Shown here piece by piece: positions 684 through 26,389 of a DNA stretch of 36,193 bases. The translations under genes and the position numbers were made by a program. The stretch is from a virus: UHGV virus genome UHGV-0315046; one strand, 5' to 3'. The notes beneath the pieces are model-generated. The model was not told the DNA's origin. It searched no databases and saw nothing but the letters and a program-made list of their open reading frames with translations. The first letter of the stretch is position 1. Every line of letters begins with the position of its first letter.

Positions 684-2531
684 TTATAATGATGATATTA
701 AATAGTATTCAACAAGTGTTGGTAAGGAAACACCAACAGGTGTTGGTCTTGATATTGTTATTGTTGTTCCTGAAACTGAAACAGTGTCCATTGAGTTTGC
801 AGCATCAGTTGGAATTACGCTGGCAGAATATATGACGCCAGAAATTGGGTTTGGGATGTCTGCAGTTCCTGATGTAGCTCCGGGTGACATAGGTACAGTT
901 ACCTTTCCTCTAGTTAATTTATTGTTATTAACCCCAAAGTTATTGTTTCTATCTTTTGGTGAGTTTAATAAGGTAAGTGATGTTATGTAATTACCGTTCA
1001 ATGAGAGACCGTCAATATCATCAAACAACAAATCACTAGCAAACATACATCCATTGATATTAATATTTCTTGATGTTTTTGAATAAATTGATTTATCACC
1101 ACCAATTATATTTACTCCCAAAACATTAACATTACTGACATTGTTTAAAGATATACCTATATTGTTATTGATAGGGTTATTGTTTTCACACCTAATTTCC
1201 ACTCCTTCTATATTACGAAGAACTGAAGGCGTCTGAGATCTAAAGTCTATTCCAACAAACTGATTAATGCTGTCACCTTGTGCGGCAATCCAGCAATCTC
1301 TTACAGAAAAAACAGAATTGTTATTTTCAAGAATTATCCCAGTTGACCCTACGAAATCAATATCGACATTCGAAAGATGCATATAAAGGCTACCTTTTAC
1401 CCATATCCCAACGTTATTTGAGATACACATTGTCTCACCATCAATAATTATCCCCTCGCTTATCACTTCACCACCAGACCATGAGTAAGTTTCTGGTGCA
1501 ATATCTATTCCTATAGACGATGGTTGAGACAATCCCTTTCCTGTGAATTTACATCCTGATATATGTATACTAACACACTGACCAAGCAATCTAAGACCAA
1601 TATTACACCCACTAGCTCGGCAGTTTGTCATTGAGCTGTGCCACCAGCCTTGCATTTCAAAACCTATTGAACAATTTTGTACCGTGACGCAGTCAAAATT
1701 AAGAGCGTAAACTTGCCTTATTACTGTATCGCTTTTTTTTAAGGTAGTTCCTATCCCCTTCACTATATCGTTTCCAGTAATGGTTATGTCACGAATAAAT
1801 GCACCTGCTGTTGTAGGGCCATAATCAAAACATATAATATAAGCATTACTATTACTTAAAATATCTCCTATTGGCCGTATATGAGTTCCGTTTCCACATC
1901 CGAACAAATTAATTCTATCAGGGATAATAATAGTTTCACTAATTCTATACTCTCCTGCTGGAAGAAATACATTACATCCAGATGGATATGAACTCTTTAG
2001 GTCTTGAAGACAGTTTTTAATTGCTGTTGTGTCATCATTGACGCCATCAGCTTTAGCTCCCCAACTGAAAACAGAAAAGGTCATTGCATTAAACAAATGT
2101 TGAGTCTGTGGAACCGCTCTCGGAAAAGGTTGTTTAACAGCAATTAGAGAATCTCCCATTCCTTCGGATGGGCTTGATAACCTTTTTTCAAGCTGATCAG
2201 GATCATACTTCAGCACATTCGGAAAATAGAACTGCTGTGCACCATACGCATCATAAACAGCCATAGAATGGCCTTGCACAGTTACGAATTTGGCAATCTG
2301 TCCGTTATATACAGGATACCCGCCAGCGTTAATGATGATTGGTTGCGAAACAGGAACGTGAGAGCCGTCTTCATTCTCTACATAAACCTGAATCCGGTTT
2401 TCAGGATTTACCGGGTCAGTGTCAATTTTCCCGATATAAATTTCGCCATTGGCTACGGCTTTAAAAGAACGCGCCATAGTGAAGAGTTGCGAAGGCATAC
2501 TCACTACAACATTGGCTGTAATGTCTGTCAT
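684..2531 (-). CDS. Tailspike protein: P22 gp9-type N-terminal head-binding domain fused to a divergent beta-helix receptor-binding domain
   Basis: 615-aa ORF. The first ~110 aa ([29 protein letters not shown]...VLKYDPDQ) match the conserved P22/Sf6 tailspike head-binding domain as I recall it; the remainder is Asn/Gly/Ile-rich with repetitive beta-helix character and lower GC. Confidence 0.9.
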
Positions 2532-2709
2532 TTAATTTGCTCCAGATACAAGGAATCGCCGCAGCATGGCTACGGTTGATATTTGTTTGGTTTTTGAACT
2601 ACGAAAATTTCGTAGTGCTATCCATCAAGGCCATCGCCGCTGAGTTGCTGCGGTGAATTTTGGGCATAAAAAAACCCAGCCGAAGCTGGGTCGTTGCGTT
2701 GGTTATCTG

Positions 2710-3624
2710 TCAGTAGTTATGTACTGAAGGAGGTAATTCTTTATTCTTAAGTCTCATCCATGCGGAAAGATTCGTTGGTCCGTCTGGCTCATTAATATCA
2801 ATATCTCGTGTGTGGTTTATTAAAACGTCTCTCGCCATTCCTATAACATAAGAGAACTCATGACCGTAGTCGTAGCATCTGCCGGAATAGTTCGATTGAA
2901 TTTGTTTCAGCGCCGGATACAGTTCGCGGAATAATGCCTGTGAGCGGTTGGCATAATCCCATAACCATACAAGGCTGTTTGCTTCTTTTGCAGAAAGCTC
3001 GTTGGTTTTCTTCTCTTGTTTGCCGATTAACTCGCCTTCAAGCGGAACGCGAGCTGCAAGTGACAGAGCTTCGGTAAACTGCTCATCGCTGATTTCTTTG
3101 TATGAACACCCAAAATGAGATTTCAGTGACGACCACATGGTGATCATCGCCTTAGCCTGTTTTTCTTTTGGCAGAGACTGACCGCGACTCATGACGAGTT
3201 GTTTAATGGCTTCCTGCTGTTCAGTGGTGATTTTTCCCGGCAACGCCTTTTTAGCTTTCGGTGTATTTCCGTAAGACCCCGTTTTACGAATGGATGGCAA
3301 AACTTCAGCTGTCACCCATTTGCGGAATTTGTGCGGGACTGAACCTTTATTGACGGCATCACGGCAGCGCAGAACCAATGTATACATACCTGATTCGCTC
3401 ACAATGCTTAAATTCTGCTCACCACCAAGGGTGTAACTTAAAGTTACTCCCTTCTCATCGTCATCAAGTGCAGTAAGCGCCTTGCGTGAGTTAGTCAGGG
3501 TTAAAGCATCACAAACATCTTTTGCTACAAACCACGGCTCACCGCACTTGTTGATGACGCGGATTTCACTGTCGCCGAATTTGAAGATGGTGAAATCGTT
3601 TTGTGCCTTTGCTATACTTTTCAT
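2710..3624 (-). CDS. ant: Antirepressor Ant (immI region)
   Basis: 304-aa ORF with an N-terminal Bro-N/AntA-like segment ([15 protein letters not shown]), placed between arc/mnt and the tailspike as in P22 immI. Confidence 0.7.
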
Positions 3625-3686
3625 GTCAATATTTCCTAATCCGATTTGTTGATACCGAAGCCCTGACTGTTACAGCAGTTGGGGCT

Positions 3687-3878
3687 TCAACTTTTATCAG
3701 CGACTTCAACTGGAATACTCTCTAGCTTTTCATCTAACCCCTTCTCGCCATGCATGAAAATAACAATATCTGTAACGCATGAGTCACAAATTGCTTCTTC
3801 GGTATTTTTTGACACAACAAAGCCCCTGCCAGTCGTTTCTTTACTACACCCACAAAAACAACATCTGCGGTTTTTCAT
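3687..3878 (-). CDS. Small Cys-rich (zinc-ribbon-like) protein between arc and ant
   Basis: 63-aa ORF with CCFCGC...CDSC (CxxC...CxxC); its ATG overlaps the arc stop as ATGA, suggesting translational coupling. Confidence 0.45.
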   Translation of the reverse strand: MKNRRCCFCGCSKETTGRGFVVSKNTEEAICDSCVTDIVIFMHGEKGLDEKLESIPVEVADKS

Positions 3879-20638: not shown

Positions 20639-21160
20639 TTAAATGATTTGCCAGTCTTCTGCTAGAACATCAGTCTGACTAGCCAGCCACGGTACTAATT
20701 TATCGTCCGCTGTTTTCATGGCGATATACGGAAGTTGTTTCGGAGATCGTTTCGATTCTCCATGCGTACCTTCAGGCAACTCAAAGACGCGACTGCAAAA
20801 GCAAGGCGTACTGCCAGTATGAACAGCCTCAGTGTACGGTTTAACGTATGCCAGCCACATACCCTTACCATTCCAGCCAGCACGAGCAACTTTATTCCCC
20901 AACTTGAGCGCTTCAATGGCAAGGCCGAAACTTAGCCCAGATACCGGACGATAAGCCTTTTCGAATACTTCTTTTGGACTCCAGCTAACGTAGCCATCAA
21001 AGCGATCGGTGTTAGGTTTTCCGCCATCCAGATATTCAACCAGATAGCCTTCGTCCTCGCCGTTTTCTCCGGCAGGAAGCTGCCAGCCACGAAAATCGTT
21101 ATATGCCTGTCTCGTCATCGGAAAGGCGTTAATCAGTTTTACGCCAATATGCTGGGTCAT
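20639..21160 (-). CDS. Two-domain hypothetical protein with DUF2829-like (Tad2-like) C-terminal half
   Basis: 173 aa; C-terminal half (FGLAIEALKLGNKVARAGWNGKGMWLAYVKP...LPYIAMKTADDKLVPWLASQTD) fits the DUF2829 pattern as I recall it; not verified. Confidence 0.5.
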   Translation of the reverse strand: MTQHIGVKLINAFPMTRQAYNDFRGWQLPAGENGEDEGYLVEYLDGGKPNTDRFDGYVSWSPKEVFEKAYRPVSGLSFGLAIEALKLGNKVARAGWNGKGMWLAYVKPYTEAVHTGSTPCFCSRVFELPEGTHGESKRSPKQLPYIAMKTADDKLVPWLASQTDVLAEDWQII

Positions 21161-21238
21161 AAAATTACCTATAGAGTTGGGAATAAAAAGCCCCGCATCG
21201 CGAGGCTCATTAAATGGACTTTGTGATTTGCAAAAAAA

Positions 21239-21715
21239 TTATTTCAGGCATTGCGTCCTGATGTATTCCTGAAGCGTTCTCAGTGCTGTTTGGTCGCGGA
21301 TAATTCCGTCCCGGACACCGAGAACGTTTCGTCCAGCAACTGGAGAGAGTTCGACGGTGGCATCATTGCCCATGCCGGAGGCGCTGGAGGCGCTGGAGGC
21401 TTCGGCTGAGGATGGCACAGGGCATTTTCCTTTGACGAGCACCCTGCCACCATTATCAAGCTTGCGCAGAAGAGCATCATTTTCAGCTTTCGCATCAGCT
21501 AATTCCTTCGTGTATTTAGCATCGAGTGCATCAGCATCACGCTGACGCTGCTGCATGTCAGCGATGGTGGCAGTCGCCTGCTTCAGCTCACTGACTTTTT
21601 TATCACGCTGTTCTTTGTAGGCGATGGCGTTATCACGGTAATGATTAACAGCCCATGACAGGCAGACGATGATGCAGATAACCAGAGCGGAAATAATCGC
21701 GGTGACTCTGCTCAT
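21239..21715 (-). CDS. Rz: Rz i-spanin
   Basis: Start refined to [30 protein letters not shown] (lambda Rz-like N-terminal TM and periplasmic start); C-terminal half diverged; contains the embedded Rz1 frame. Confidence 0.85.
21280..21495 (-). CDS. Rz1: Rz1 o-spanin lipoprotein, embedded in Rz in the +1 frame
   Basis: Signal peptide with lipobox (LIMVAGC) followed by a Pro-rich segment [14 protein letters not shown], as in lambda Rz1. Confidence 0.7.
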
Positions 21716-22215
21716 TGCTGCCCCCACAAACAGACTTCACGCTCAATCTCACGGCGAGTCATCAGCCCTTTCCATTGCTTACCGCCAGCGTATGTCCAGC
21801 GACGTAGCTGGTCACATGCGCCATTGATATCGCCCTGGTTGATTTTGCGAAGAAGCGTCGATGTTCTGAAATTGCCTGCGCCCACGTTATAGACGAACGA
21901 ATAAAGAGCGCCGCGCGTTGTTTCCGGTATATCGACTTTGATGTACGGGTTAATTTGTCTGGCTACCGTGGCAAGGTCTTTATTCAGGAGGGCTTTGCAT
22001 TCTGCTTCGGTATACGTTTTACCGGGAATGATGTCTTTTCCTGTATGCCCGTGACATACAGTCCATACGCCAACGATATCTTTGTATGGTATGTAGCTGA
22101 CACCTTCCAGACCATCGTTACCACTTGGCCCAGTGATTAACACAGATGCTATAGCAATAGCCCCGCCACTTATCGCCGCTATTACGCTATTTCGTAGTGC
22201 CGGTGACATTGCCAT
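21712..22215 (-). CDS. SAR endolysin (T4-lysozyme-like muramidase with N-terminal signal-anchor-release domain)
   Basis: N-terminal weakly hydrophobic Gly/Ala-rich helix ([15 protein letters not shown]) followed by an E...C/D...T catalytic spacing typical of phage 21/P1-type lysozymes. Confidence 0.8.
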
Positions 22216-22390
22216 TCAATCTGTCCTCGCGCTCTTTGCGCTTGTAGTACCAGTTGATGCCAAATGTGCCGACAGTACAAAGAATACCAATGATGACAGC
22301 CCAGTCATTCAGGGAGAGAATGCCACCCATCGCAGTCAGTCCTCCGAAGCTGTAACTGAACCATTCTCTGATTTTGTCCATACGGTACAT
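22187..22390 (-). CDS. Class II holin (pinholin-like) with dual-start motif
   Basis: 67 aa, two predicted TM helices, charged C-terminus; N-terminal M-Y-R-M gives two possible starts; overlaps the endolysin start. Confidence 0.75.
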
Positions 22391-22793
22391 GCTCTACCCC
22401 TTCATTGAGGGGATTTGCTCTATTTAATTAGGAATAAGGTCGATTACTGATAGAACAAATCCAGGCTACTGTGTTTAGTAATCAGATTTGTTCGTGACCG
22501 ATATGCACGGGCAAAACGGCAGGAGGTTGTTAGCGCAGCCTCTTGCCATCCGCTTTCACGAAGGTCATGTGTAGAAGGCCGCAGCGTAACTATTACTAAT
22601 GAATTCAGAACAGACAGTGGCTACGGCTCAGTTTGGGTTGTGCTGTTGCTGGGCGGCGATGACGCCTGTACGCATTTGGTGATCCGGTTCTGCTTCCGGT
22701 ATTCGCTTAATTCAGCACAACGGAAAGAGCACTGGCTAACCAGGCTCGCCGACTCTTCACGATTATCGACTCAATGCTCTTACCTGTTGTGCA

Positions 22794-22857
22794 GATATAA
22801 AAAATCCCGAAACCGTTATGCAGGCTCTAACTATTACCTGCGAACTGTTTCGGGATT
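22794..22857 (-). terminator. tR-prime-like intrinsic terminator ending a 6S-like late leader RNA
   Basis: Minus-strand hairpin CCCGAAAC...GTTTCGGG followed by a U-run, about 190 nt downstream of the putative PR-prime start; region matches lambda 6S/tR-prime as recalled. Confidence 0.65.
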
Positions 22858-22989
22858 GCATTTTGCAGACCTCTCTGCCTGCGATGGTTGGAGTTCCAGA
22901 CGATACGTCGAAGTGACCAACTAGGCGGAATCGGTAGTAAGCGCCGCCTCTTTTCATCTCACTACCACAACGAGCGAATTAACCCATCG

Positions 22990-23030
22990 TTGAGTCAAAT
23001 TTACCCAATTTTATTCAATAAGTCAATATC
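22990..23030 (-). promoter_or_regulatory. Late promoter PR-prime with overlapping Q-utilisation (qut) region
   Basis: Minus-strand -35 TTGACT (23021-23026) and -10 TAAATT (22998-23003) with 17-bp spacing, just downstream of Q. Confidence 0.65.
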
Positions 23031-23068
23031 ATGCCGTTAATATGTTGCCATCCGTGGCAATCATGCTG

Positions 23069-23692
23069 CTAACGTGTGACCGCATTCAAAATGTTGTCTG
23101 CGATTGACTCTTCTTTGTGGCATTGCACCACCAGAGCGTCATACAGCGGCTTAACAGTGCGTGACCAGGTGGGTTGGGTAAGGTTTGGGATTAGCATCGT
23201 CACAGCGCGATATGCTGCGCTTGCTGGCATCCTTGAATAGCCGACGCCTTTGCATCTTCCGCACTCTTTCTCGACAACTCTCCCCCACAGCTCTGTTTTG
23301 GCAATATCAACCGCACGGCCTGTACCGTGGCAATCTCTGCATCTTGCCCCCGGCGTCGCGGCACTACGGCAATAATCCGCATAAGCGAATGTTGCGAGCA
23401 CTTGCAGTACCTTTGCCTTAGTATTTCCTTCAAGCTTTGCCACACCACGGTATTTCCCCGATACCTTGTGTGCAAATTGCATCAGATAGTTGATAGCCTT
23501 TTGTTTGTCGTTCTGGCTGAGTTCGTGCTTACCGCAGAATGCAGCCATACCGAATCCGGCTTGTGATTGCGCCATCCCCATAGCAGCCATCACATCAGTA
23601 CCGGAAAGAGAGTCAGAAGCCGTGGCCCGTGGTGAGTCGCTCATCATCGGGCTTTTTGGCGAATGAAATTTAGCTACGCTTTCGAGTCTCAT
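23069..23692 (-). CDS. Q: Late antiterminator Q (lambda type)
   Basis: 207 aa; appears essentially identical to lambda Q as recalled (MRLESVAKFHSPKSPMMSDSPRATASDSLSGTDVMAAMGMAQSQAGFGMAAFCGKHE...). Confidence 0.9.
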   Translation of the reverse strand: MRLESVAKFHSPKSPMMSDSPRATASDSLSGTDVMAAMGMAQSQAGFGMAAFCGKHELSQNDKQKAINYLMQFAHKVSGKYRGVAKLEGNTKAKVLQVLATFAYADYCRSAATPGARCRDCHGTGRAVDIAKTELWGRVVEKECGRCKGVGYSRMPASAAYRAVTMLIPNLTQPTWSRTVKPLYDALVVQCHKEESIADNILNAVTR

Positions 23693-23877
23693 GGCCTTCC
23701 CCTTTTTCCCTGTTTGACCATCAGGACGCCGTTAACTATTACGTGACGCTCGACTTTACTGTCTCGGTTGTACTTGAGCACTGTTCCTCTTGCGCAGGAA
23801 AGCATCCTTGCCACTTCGGTCTGATTGCCTCGTGTCTGGATAAGAAGCTCTGGTATCGTTTGAATTGTGGCGTTCAT
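23689..23877 (-). CDS. ninH: NinH-like small DNA-binding protein
   Basis: 62 aa; motif GNQTEVARMLSCARGTVLKY...IVNGVLMV resembles lambda NinH; sits immediately upstream of Q. Confidence 0.65.
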   Translation of the reverse strand: MNATIQTIPELLIQTRGNQTEVARMLSCARGTVLKYNRDSKVERHVIVNGVLMVKQGKRGRP

Positions 23878-24236
23878 GCGTTCTCCAGTTCGGTGATTTT
23901 TATTCCAAGCCTTCCGCCTGGTACTTTCACGCCACGAATTACGCGAATGTCATCGAATTGCTCGTCGTCTTCCGCAAATCCGGCGTGGATAAGGGAGTCG
24001 AGTAAACCTTTCAGGATGTTATCGAGGTCGCGGCGGCGGGAGTCTGGAACGTCTGCGATGACTTTGATGCGGAGTCGTGATTTGGTGAAAATGTCTAACT
24101 TGAGTTGGCGGATGATTTGCTGAACGTCTTTTCGGTATTTCTGGCCTTTATCGCTGATGTAGTATTGACTCCCCCGTCTTCGCCAGTAGGTATTCACCGA
24201 CGGCGGGTATGGAAGCACAAACTGATATTCGTTCAT
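23874..24236 (-). CDS. rusA: RusA-family Holliday junction resolvase
   Basis: 120 aa; motifs PPSVNTYW, DVPDSRRRDLDN and GGRLGIKITELE match the RusA family. Confidence 0.85.
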   Translation of the reverse strand: MNEYQFVLPYPPSVNTYWRRRGSQYYISDKGQKYRKDVQQIIRQLKLDIFTKSRLRIKVIADVPDSRRRDLDNILKGLLDSLIHAGFAEDDEQFDDIRVIRGVKVPGGRLGIKITELENA

Positions 24237-24523
24237 GGCTTAATCTTCCCCTCCTTCAGCAGTATCGCCTGCGTCCTGATCACGCCTTCGAGGTGGTAAA
24301 GTCTGGCGTCTTTGTTGTCGAGAATCATTGTGCGTCGGTCGATTTCATCGTGACACGCGCTACAAGCCCATGCGCCGATCAGGTCGTCAGGCTTCATTCC
24401 AGTTCCGCAAATTCCAGCCATCCGGTAATGTGCCAGAACTGTAGTTTCAGGATTACCATTGCATACGCCGTAAATACGTACCTGGCATTCTCTGCCGCGC
24501 GCTTCTTTGCGTAGATTAGCCAT
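24233..24523 (-). CDS. ybcO: YbcO-like (DUF1364) putative nuclease
   Basis: 96 aa, several conserved Cys/His (CQVRIYGVC...HY...C...CSACHDEID); same size and RusA-adjacent position as DLP12 YbcO. Confidence 0.55.
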   Translation of the reverse strand: MANLRKEARGRECQVRIYGVCNGNPETTVLAHYRMAGICGTGMKPDDLIGAWACSACHDEIDRRTMILDNKDARLYHLEGVIRTQAILLKEGKIKP

Positions 24524-25424: not shown

Positions 25425-25952
25425 TCATGCCGCCCTCCTGACGCCCTGCCCGATCGCCATCAATGCCGCTTTGGATACGGTAGTAAACATCCGTCTAGGA
25501 CTGATGAACGGTCGCCAAATCAGCAGCATTGAGCCTTTACTGTTTCCCTTCTTCTCCAGCCCCGTCGATGGTTCGATAAAATTAATCCGTCCATCAGTGA
25601 TAATACGAACTTCGTCAACACTCTCCAGAGCCTTGCTGAACCATCCGACAGACATATCCTCTGGCACAAGCATCACTACCGTCTGGCGCTGTTGTATGCA
25701 CTGCTCAGCGGCTTTTTCCACCCACGGCCTGATATTGCTGTACGGTGGGTTATTCCAGATTGCACCGTGGCTTATCCACTCAGAATTTAGCGCGTCGTCA
25801 GCCTCAGTTAGCCAGTGAGCGCACAGAGCATTTTTGTCGCTCGCTGCCGAATCCAGCCAGAATCCAAACTCAATATCCAGTGCATCAAAAAGCCAAAGCG
25901 GCGTTTGCCAGCAGTCCTTGTCGTGTGCTGGCGTATTTGATTTGATAGTCAT
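25425..25952 (-). CDS. Orphan phage Dam-type DNA N6-adenine methyltransferase
   Basis: Start refined to [22 protein letters not shown]-coupled to the ninB stop. Catalytic NPPY motif ([14 protein letters not shown]); no adjacent restriction endonuclease gene. Confidence 0.8.
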
Positions 25953-26389
25953 GCAGCCCGATCTCCCCATCGCGCTTTCCATTCGAGAGCCAGTCGCGCT
26001 TCGTCTGACCACTTAACGCCACGATCTGTACCGAATGCCTGTATAAGCTCTAATAGCTCCGCAAATTCGCCTACACGCATCCTGCTGGTTGACTGGCCTA
26101 TTACCACAAAGCCATTCCCGGCAAGGTTAGGAACAACATCCTGCTGCTTTAATGCTGCGGTAAACACACACTTCCAGCTTTCTGCATCCAGCCAGCGACC
26201 ATGCCATTCAACCTGACGAGAGACGTCACCTAAGCAGGCCCATAGCTTCCTGTTTTGGTCTAAGCTGCGGTTGCGCTCCTGAATGATCACTACGATTGGC
26301 TTGGTTGGGTCTGGAAGAATTTGCTGCACCGCGTGAATAGCGTTTTGCTGATGTGCTGGGGATCGAATTTCAAAGGTTAGTTTTTTCAT
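25949..26389 (-). CDS. ninB: NinB recombination protein
   Basis: Start at MKKLTFEIRSPAHQQNAIHAVQQILPDPTKPIVV...; appears near-identical to lambda NinB (146 aa) as recalled. Confidence 0.85.
   Translation of the reverse strand: MKKLTFEIRSPAHQQNAIHAVQQILPDPTKPIVVIIQERNRSLDQNRKLWACLGDVSRQVEWHGRWLDAESWKCVFTAALKQQDVVPNLAGNGFVVIGQSTSRMRVGEFAELLELIQAFGTDRGVKWSDEARLALEWKARWGDRAA

Follow-up and report, generated by a model that had tools for sequence, protein, structure and literature searches.

Lambda-type late-gene control DNA upstream of an HP1-family holin in a P22-like phage genome

Introduction

How does a phage with P22-like structural genes come to carry late-control DNA that is nearly indistinguishable from that of lambda, and what kind of boundary separates this DNA from the lysis genes that follow it? 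The question is raised by the virus genome UHGV-0315046, a stretch of 36,193 nucleotides that was analyzed as a whole and is called the window here. Its focal feature is a 678-nt intergenic space (22391..23068) on the minus strand, which extends from the stop codon of the late antiterminator gene Q (23069) to the ATG of the holin gene (22390). All of the late-control and lysis features described below are located on the minus strand. We propose that the region is very probably the lambda-allele late-gene control region of a P22-like (Lederbergvirus-type) temperate Escherichia coli phage or prophage, and that it was acquired through the exchange of modules among lambdoid phages.

Results

The backbone of the window is P22-like

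The original prediction placed the locus inside a P22-like morphogenesis backbone. Pfam families, sar RNA and nucleotide matches to Lederbergvirus genomes all bear out this placement. The Pfam matches of the backbone comprise PF11651, PF16510, PF16677, PF11134, PF16928, PF09008 and PF10548, and the encoded proteins include the P22 coat, portal, gp3 small terminase, gp10, a gp20-type injection protein, the tailspike head-binding domain and Ant. The window also contains the immI (ant/sar) moron, and its sar RNA matches Rfam RF00262 with 69 bits. The nucleotide identity to the Lederbergvirus genomes JEP4, Kapi1, CUS-3 and Sf101 is 91-95% over the aligned parts, with values of 94-95% for JEP4, Kapi1 and Sf101. 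The early region is lambdoid and encodes CII, a DnaB-type helicase, NinB, Dam, NinX, NinF, YbcO, RusA and NinH.

The late-control region carries the lambda allele

The first late-control element downstream of ninH is the Q gene (23069..23692), a 207-aa ORF whose ATG overlaps the ninH stop codon in an ATGA motif, an overlap that other nin regions show as well. In BLASTP, 207 of 207 residues of the Q protein agree with lambda Q, and the protein matches the Pfam Antiterm family (PF03589) with 193 bits. At the DNA level, 623 of 624 bases are identical, and the single substitution (23327) is synonymous. The late promoter PR' (22998..23026) was located by a consensus scan, with the -35 element TTGACT at 23026-23021, the -10 element TAAATT at 23003-22998 and a 17-nt spacer between them. 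From what is known of lambda PR', we take the Q-binding element (QBE) to lie inside this spacer. PR' is followed by the region of the 6S RNA, the short PR' transcript (22798..22991), which is 100% identical to lambda. We assume the positions given in the lambda literature for the sigma70-dependent pause element AACGAT at the start of 6S and for the +1 nucleotide.

The identity to lambda is complete throughout this part of the window. It covers 23068..22991 in the segment alignment and 23068..22969, the sequence-level equivalent of lambda PR'/qut, and it extends over the whole of 23068..22797, which holds the promoter, the first 22 nt of the transcript, the 6S RNA body and the tR' terminator. 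In the predicted fold, tR' forms a hairpin (22857..22804) followed by UUUUUU, and the fold is more stable than that of shuffled sequences (z = -3.2). A simple terminator scan of the window missed tR' because its long interrupted stem falls outside the rules of the scan. Judged by its sequence, Q is a member of the lambda-type (type 1) antiterminator family with a cognate PR'/qut. Given the identity to lambda, read-through of tR' would be expected to depend on Q.

An ORF that overlaps the 6S region, orf-64 (22957..22763), was also considered as a gene and was rejected, with no Pfam family and a match solely to a PHROG of unknown function. This PHROG is a group built from the same lambda ORF.

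Identity to lambda ends within a hairpin upstream of the holin gene

Where does the identity to lambda stop? The lambda genome J02459 served as the reference, with the related late region at coordinates 43886-45181. BLAST aligns it with the window over 23702..22395 in one alignment at 99.0% identity. From the Q ATG through the leader (23692..22408), the window differs from lambda by 7 substitutions in 1285 bases. Six of these are located in the leader, at 22609, 22574, 22549, 22543, 22538 and 22537. Such likeness is far beyond chance, since it comprises 1.3 kb at 99-100% identity. A base-by-base comparison places the loss of identity at 22408/22407, which is 17 nt upstream of the holin ATG. 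The predicted identity of Q, the near-identity of the PR', 6S and leader DNA to lambda, and the end of similarity at the holin ribosome-binding site are therefore all correct, and the pairwise alignment displays a sharp loss of identity at 22407 rather than moderate and uniform similarity.

The break is located within an RNA structure. Alignment and folding identify an sdi-like hairpin, CCCCT-CAATGA-AGGGG (22391..22412), whose 3' arm and flank hold the Shine-Dalgarno sequence of the holin gene. The last bases in common with lambda, AAATCCCCT, constitute the 5' arm, and the identity ends within the loop. The loop and the 3' arm differ, with CCCC-TTATT-GGGG in lambda against CCCCT-CAATGA-AGGGG in the window. 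According to multiple alignment and folding, lambda, P22 and phage 21 carry analogous hairpins of different sequence at the same position. In lambda, the sdi structure sets the ratio in which the two start codons of S are used.

A segment of 1.3 kb that is nearly identical to a laboratory phage and starts and stops abruptly could in principle be an assembly chimera or a contamination, in which lambda DNA, a common spike-in in the laboratory and in sequencing, was joined in silico to a P22-like contig. The segment nevertheless differs from reference lambda at the 7 positions given above and matches L014, an independent metagenomic contig from IMG/VR, at 100% identity. Furthermore, both of its ends fall on natural module boundaries, and the ATGA overlap that joins ninH to Q is of the kind found in other nin regions. 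Finished E. coli chromosomes, as well as 7 IMG/VR contigs, also contain the contiguous order rusA-ninH-Q-6S-leader-HP1 holin-R. We thus regard an artificial origin as extremely improbable and treat the segment as natural phage DNA. In one of these finished chromosomes, that of E. coli ST3, the order rusA-ninH-Q-6S-leader-HP1 holin-R21-type R-Rz is contiguous and matches 24300..21709 of the window at 96.6% identity.

The holin belongs to the HP1 family

The gene downstream of the break (22187..22390) encodes a class II holin of 67 aa. The protein matches Pfam PF16080, Phage_holin_2_3 (HP1 family, TC 1.E.7), with 75.1 bits against a cut-off of 28.8 over profile positions 1-49 of 56, and it also matches PHROG 20, which is annotated as holin. 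The score for the S21 family PF04971 is 19.5 bits, under the cut-off of 26, and the BLASTP comparison with S21 (S21-71) of the phage 21 genome used here (OL657228) yields E = 0.27. These two results rule out that the holin is a homologue of phage 21 S. The original prediction of a phage-21-style lysis cassette consequently stands for the design of the cassette and for its R21-type SAR endolysin, and it fails for the homology of the holin, which is of the HP1 family and not of the S21 family.

The hydropathy profile of the holin resembles that of S21 and consists of a weakly hydrophobic N-terminal segment rich in Gly, Ser and Thr, followed by one strong transmembrane domain (residues ~24-48). 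The protein begins with the dual-start motif Met1-Tyr-Arg-Met4 behind the sdi-like hairpin, and this motif is analogous in kind and position to MKM of lambda, MKKM of P22 and MKSM of phage 21. By this analogy, both start codons may be used, in which case the longer product would be an antiholin with an additional positive charge. HP1 Hol, the founder of PF16080, has been demonstrated by experiment to be a pinholin, with nanometer-scale holes that depolarize the membrane and hold back folded proteins. It kills the cell without lysis or release of beta-galactosidase and works with a SAR endolysin partner, but it lacks a dual start and its topology is unusual (PMC7312051). The membership in the HP1 family, the SAR endolysin partner and the hydropathy profile together suggest that the gene encodes a pinholin/antiholin pair, and pinholin function is the best prediction for this protein.

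The endolysin and spanin genes are mosaic

The endolysin gene (21712..22215) shares 29 nt with the end of the holin gene and encodes a GH24 lysozyme of the R21/RrrD type, with 153 of 165 residues identical to phage 21 R. The protein matches the R21 and RrrD structures (PDB 3HDE and 4ZPU) with E-values of 1e-104 to 1e-105, shares an identical 22-residue segment in this comparison, and matches Pfam PF00959 with 156 bits. Gly and Ala are abundant in its N-terminal stretch, and Gly, Ala, Ser and Thr make up 53% of the 17-residue signal-arrest-release (SAR) segment. As far as its sequence indicates, it is an R21/RrrD-type SAR endolysin with a SAR domain, a lysozyme domain and a Glu-Asp-Thr region. 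The similarity to the cassettes of phages 21, 434 and DLP12 begins ~46 nt into the gene, at ~22169. Near 22170, the identity of the window to phage Emek and to the ST3 prophage falls from 100% to 95%. The coincidence of these two breakpoints indicates that the endolysin gene is itself mosaic. Upstream of this point, the window is 100% identical to Emek and the ST3 prophage over the first 175 nt of the holin gene (22390..22216) and over the next 46 nt (22215..22170), within which the gene ends.

The spanin genes complete the cassette. The i-spanin gene Rz (21239..21715) encodes 158 aa (Pfam PF03245, 96 bits), and the o-spanin gene Rz1 (21280..21495; Pfam PF06085, 65.5 bits) is embedded in its +1 frame. 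Rz1 has the lipobox VAGC and a proline-rich mature part, belongs to PHROG 3198 and is 43% identical to Rz1 of phage 21. The prediction of an Rz with a lambda-like N-terminus and a different C-terminus is upheld. The first 245 nt of the gene (21715..21471) are 89% identical to lambda and 87% identical to phage 21, and the nucleotide match to both phages ends there. The Rz protein is 59% identical to lambda Rz overall, and its first ~82 residues are more similar (~84%) than the remainder. The N-terminal half of Rz is not part of the near-identical lambda segment, because it is 89% identical to lambda, about equally similar to phage 21 and 96% identical to Kapi1 and ST3.

The homology to lambda and phage 21 stops at 21471, ~25 nt into Rz1. 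The C-terminal half of Rz and nearly all of Rz1 belong to another allele, which is 94-95% identical to Kapi1 and the ST3 prophage. BLAST gives 95.7% identity to Kapi1 for the whole Rz gene, and the N- and C-terminal segments score 96.3% and 94.8% against Kapi1 and 96.3% and 94.4% against ST3. The periplasmic C-terminal domains of Rz and Rz1 interact with each other, and a joint transfer of the Rz C-terminus and Rz1 would fit this interaction. Downstream of Rz, a scan detected a hairpin with a T-run that resembles an intrinsic terminator (21188..21208), and the homologous site in Emek is annotated as a terminator.

The leader is composed of three segments

The leader that connects the lambda-type control region with the holin gene is divisible into three segments. 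Segment a (22634..22796) is lambda-specific and 100% identical to lambda. Kapi1 and phage 21 instead carry tRNA-Asn and tRNA-Thr genes at its position. Decay of a tRNA gene was considered as an origin of segment a and dismissed, as ARAGORN found no tRNA in the window. A permissive Rfam scan likewise gave no match for the leader beyond one chance-level hit to a CRISPR repeat (E = 9.7). Segment b (22564..22633) is common to lambda, Kapi1 and ST3, and phage 21 shares a part of it (61 nt, 90%). Segment c (22408..22563, 156 nt) precedes holins of the lambda-S type as well as those of the HP1 type. It is 97.4% identical to lambda, 99.4% identical to Emek, ST3 and Kapi1, 73% identical to P22 and 100% identical to contig L014. 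The single position at which Emek and ST3 differ from the window in this segment is 22549.

The junction between the leader and the holin gene is old and widespread

Is the break at 22408/22407 a junction that was made in the lineage of the window? It might, as the original prediction implies, be a recent illegitimate junction through which lambda DNA was grafted exactly at the holin ribosome-binding site of a phage-21-type cassette. The abrupt drop of lambda identity 17 nt before the ATG agrees with such an event, as does the unusual closeness of the Q-to-leader DNA to lambda (99.5%), compared with 95-97% identity of the flanking genes to their best relatives. However, the same boundary is found in many other genomes. 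A 321-nt piece that spans the leader and the start of the holin gene (22560..22240) is present nearly full-length in at least 39 phage records, including Emek (99.7%), SEN22, PS34, BTP1, ST104 and SE1, and the exact 50-nt leader/holin junction recurs in 98 IMG/VR contigs. Moreover, the match of the window to Emek and ST3, at 99.4-100% identity, runs across the junction (22563..22170), and the holin is not a member of the phage 21 family at all. A graft of this kind is therefore very improbable. We conclude that 22408/22407 is the point at which two old module families diverge and not a junction that arose in this lineage.

The junction is combined with diverse upstream DNA. Upstream layouts were scored in the 74 of the 98 junction contigs that contain enough upstream DNA, and at least six layouts were distinguished. 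The layout of the window, with lambda-type Q, 6S/tR' and leader segments a, b and c, occurs in 7 of the 74 contigs; the P22/Emek type with a short tR' accounts for 21, and other Q types account for 38. Among 5426 complete E. coli genomes, 24 cover at least 80% of a 2.8-kb query from the region. A 40-mer that includes a SNP private to the window has exact matches in two IMG/VR contigs and none in the GTDB species representatives.

Leader segment c is a probable substrate for homologous recombination

Contig L014 helps to locate the exchange that united the two module families in this lineage. Although the holin encoded by L014 is a class I protein of the lambda type, the contig matches the window at 100% identity through the 1285 nt of 23692..22408, including the alleles at 22609 and 22549 that are private to the window. 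The two parental types, represented by L014 on the lambda side and by Emek and ST3 on the HP1-holin side, are identical to each other across 22548..22408, so a crossover can be placed only within this 141-nt stretch of the leader. On the lambda side, the interval is bounded by one informative site (22549, where L014 has the allele of the window), and its other end is set by the divergence point at 22407. The crossover probably took place somewhere in 22548..22408 through homologous recombination, for which leader segment c is the probable substrate. Another placement, at 22594..22574, had been derived from four mismatches between the window and reference lambda, and it was dropped because L014 reveals these sites to be private to reference lambda. 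The sequences reveal neither the direction of the exchange nor the number of events. The expectation that the recombination junctions could be pinned to within a few bases thus does not hold, given a boundary that is common to at least 39 phage records and 98 contigs and a crossover interval of 141 nt.

Does segment c also have a function of its own? The position of the boundary could reflect selection for a sequence-specific function and not merely the history of recombination; the leader might, for example, act as a back-up terminator, contain an RNA processing site or control the translation of the holin. Segment c is 97-100% identical in front of two unrelated holin families in well over 100 lambdoid genomes, although its surroundings vary. 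The predicted fold of the 406-nt leader is more stable than those of shuffled sequence (z = -3.8) and includes a GC-rich hairpin with GUUUUG after it (~22547..22512), and an sdi-type hairpin occupies the same position in four holin contexts. On the other hand, recent spread by recombination would produce high conservation of the leader as well, and the leader of P22 retains only 73% identity in segment c. The leader hairpin contains an A.C mismatch in the window and most of its relatives, the Rfam scans give no match for the leader, and its sequence variation is too small for a covariation test. We consider it unlikely, if worth keeping in mind, that selection for such a function explains the boundary. 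It is doubtful in its own right that segment c is a functional cis-acting RNA or DNA element rather than a passive recombination linker; a second Q-sensitive terminator at ~22547..22512 and a structure that sets holin translation are the candidate roles. If segment c were functional, its conservation would fix the position of the module boundary.

Discussion

Our analysis favors module exchange among lambdoid phages as the origin of the lambda-allele late-control region in this P22-like genome. The identities, breakpoints, family memberships and frequencies given above are direct results, and antitermination, pinholin behavior, the use of both start codons and the mechanism of recombination are inferred. 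How would the assembled region operate? In the proposed mechanism, Q would be produced from the early right operon, bind its site within PR' and load onto RNA polymerase paused at +16/+17, which would enable the polymerase to read through tR'. When read-through does not occur, termination at tR' would yield the 194-nt 6S RNA. Beyond tR', transcription would extend through the leader to the lysis genes and on to the P22-type morphogenesis genes. A pinholin-style cassette would be the first group of late genes to be reached, and its dual-start HP1-family holin would be translated behind the sdi-like hairpin. The R21-type SAR endolysin would be exported by the Sec system and then be released when the pinholin depolarizes the membrane, and the embedded Rz/Rz1 spanin pair would complete the lysis cassette.

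The same arrangement suggests how the modules may have been assembled. Leader segment c, which is located upstream of both holin types, would supply homologous DNA for a crossover. The HP1-holin module would have been joined to the lambda-type Q-to-leader module within 22548..22408, at an old and widespread boundary, and the C-terminal half of Rz would travel together with Rz1 as a further module.

The arrangement represents textbook lambdoid mosaicism and introduces no novel type of element. All of its components fall into families that have been described. The P22-like phage epsilon34 carries a lambda-type Q (98% identical) and an identical qut site, and six Salmonella P22-like phages have three non-homologous types of holin and three types of lysin (Villafane et al., PMC2629481). 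The Q proteins of lambda and P22 are interchangeable 'type 1' antiterminators, and the lysis genes 13 and 19 vary between P22-like phages (phage L paper, PMC8022706). In light of these precedents from epsilon34 and from the lysis genes of P22-like phages, the locus is an instance of a well-described phenomenon. Its significance past annotation is small, and its value is that of a clean and quantified case of late-control and lysis modules shuffled at conserved leaders. The case illustrates that an abrupt end of identity to a single reference genome does not by itself mark a site of recombination. It also allows the late promoter, 6S/tR', the dual-start HP1-family holin, the SAR endolysin and the spanins to be annotated with confidence and corrects the label 'phage-21 holin'.

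Comparison with known systems

The locus combines features of several known systems, and each of them matches it in part. The Hol/Lys pair of the Haemophilus phage HP1 resembles the lysis cassette of the window in that a PF16080 holin gene is located directly upstream of a SAR endolysin gene and overlaps it. HP1 Hol differs in its length of 78 aa and its lack of a dual start and antiholin, compared with 67 aa and the Met1 and Met4 starts of the window holin, and HP1 differs in host and phage type.

Phage 21, with its S21 68/71 pinholin-antiholin, shares the overall design, in which a small dual-start (M-x-x-M) class II holin is combined with a SAR endolysin and embedded spanins. Its R is 93% identical at the protein level, and the nucleotide match extends over 22210..21471 at 90%. 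However, its holin belongs to an unrelated family, its Q is of a different type, its tR' is short, and its leader contains tRNA genes. The C-terminal half of Rz and Rz1 are also different.

Lambda is the counterpart of the late-control region. The two share an identical Q protein, and identity is 100% in PR', the QBE, the pause element, 6S RNA and tR'. In the leader it amounts to 97-100% up to the sdi hairpin, whose loop and 3' arm differ. The upstream neighbor of Q is ninH in the window and ninI (Nin221) in lambda. Downstream, the window encodes an HP1-family class II holin, whereas lambda encodes the class I holin S105/S107.

Kapi1 (MT813197), a Lederbergvirus of E. coli, shares the P22-like structural genes. 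Its rusA-ninH-Q-PR'-6S region is 97.8% identical, it has the same Rz/Rz1 allele, and a downstream Tad2-like ORF is 96% identical. In contrast to the window, Kapi1 has tRNA-Asn and tRNA-Thr in place of leader segment a, and it encodes a lambda-type S holin and R endolysin instead of an HP1-type holin and R21-type endolysin.

The Salmonella P22-like phages Emek, PS34, ST104, BTP1 and SE1 and the ST3 prophage of E. coli match the window on the other side of the boundary. They share leader segment c, the sdi hairpin and the combination of HP1-type holin with R21-type endolysin at 97-100% identity, and they have a Q of the lambda/P22 type 1. Emek and PS34, like P22, do not have 22968..22564, in place of which they carry the short tR' of the P22 type; the identity of their Q is 95-97% rather than 99.8%, and their Rz/Rz1 allele is another one. 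The ST3 prophage has the same layout as the window, with the 96.6% overall identity given above and a divergent patch at 22800..22726.

Results and discussion

The late-control region of the phage is shared, base for base, with a virus that carries a different type of holin. Within positions 1670..2976, the metagenomic viral contig L014 (IMGVR_UViG_3300045988_087333) is 100% identical to the window across Q, PR', the 6S RNA and the leader (1285 nt), which makes this contig closer to the window over these elements than reference lambda is. Because the holin of L014 is of the lambda-S type, and that of the window belongs to the HP1 family, both holin types circulate with the exact late-control allele. 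Further downstream, an allele breakpoint lies at ~22170 (minus strand), at approximately codon 15 of the endolysin and thus inside its SAR domain. The window is 100% identical to Salmonella phage Emek and the E. coli ST3 prophage upstream of this position but only 95% identical downstream. The same breakpoint is where the window starts to resemble phage 21, 434 and DLP12 at the nucleotide level.

Folding prediction gives the late leader downstream of tR' (22391..22796, minus strand; 406 nt) more structure than its shuffled counterparts, with an MFE of -126 kcal/mol (z = -3.8); the leader has no family in Rfam. Leader c, the segment found upstream of both lambda-S-type and HP1-type holins, contains a GC-rich hairpin (GGCAAGAGG...CCTCCTGCC; 22512..22547, minus strand) that is followed by GTTTTG and could be a weak second terminator of the late leader. 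Of the six positions at which the leader departs from lambda, three (22543, 22538 and 22537) fall in or directly past the 5' arm, and a fourth (22549) directly precedes the hairpin. The stem is perfect in lambda, whereas the window and most of its relatives have an A.C mismatch.

The 6S RNA/tR' region also contains a counterpart of lambda 'orf-64' (22763..22957, minus strand), which is probably not a gene. This reading frame has no family in Pfam, and its sole match is a PHROG without an assigned function, which mirrors lambda orf-64. In the nin region, ninB and ninX flank a gene for a Dam-type DNA N6-adenine methyltransferase (25425..26012, minus strand; PF05869, 217 bits). A P22-type immI region (2710..3692) includes the Ant antirepressor (2710..3624, minus strand), which combines Bro-N with a P22AR C-terminal domain, and the sar antisense RNA (3626..3692, plus strand; Rfam RF00262, 69 bits), located directly upstream of the ant start codon.

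The first ORF past the Rz terminator (20639..21160, minus strand) encodes 173 residues and belongs to PHROG 872, a group of unknown function. With 89.5 bits for PF11195 (Thoeris anti-defence 2-like), its C-terminal half contains a domain of the Tad2-like type, and the ORF is possibly an anti-Thoeris moron within the late operon. Emek has a hypothetical ORF, also of 173 residues, at the equivalent position, where nucleotide alignment to the window spans only 30 nt; in the E. coli Lederbergvirus Kapi1, the ORF is present in the equivalent place with 96% nucleotide identity.
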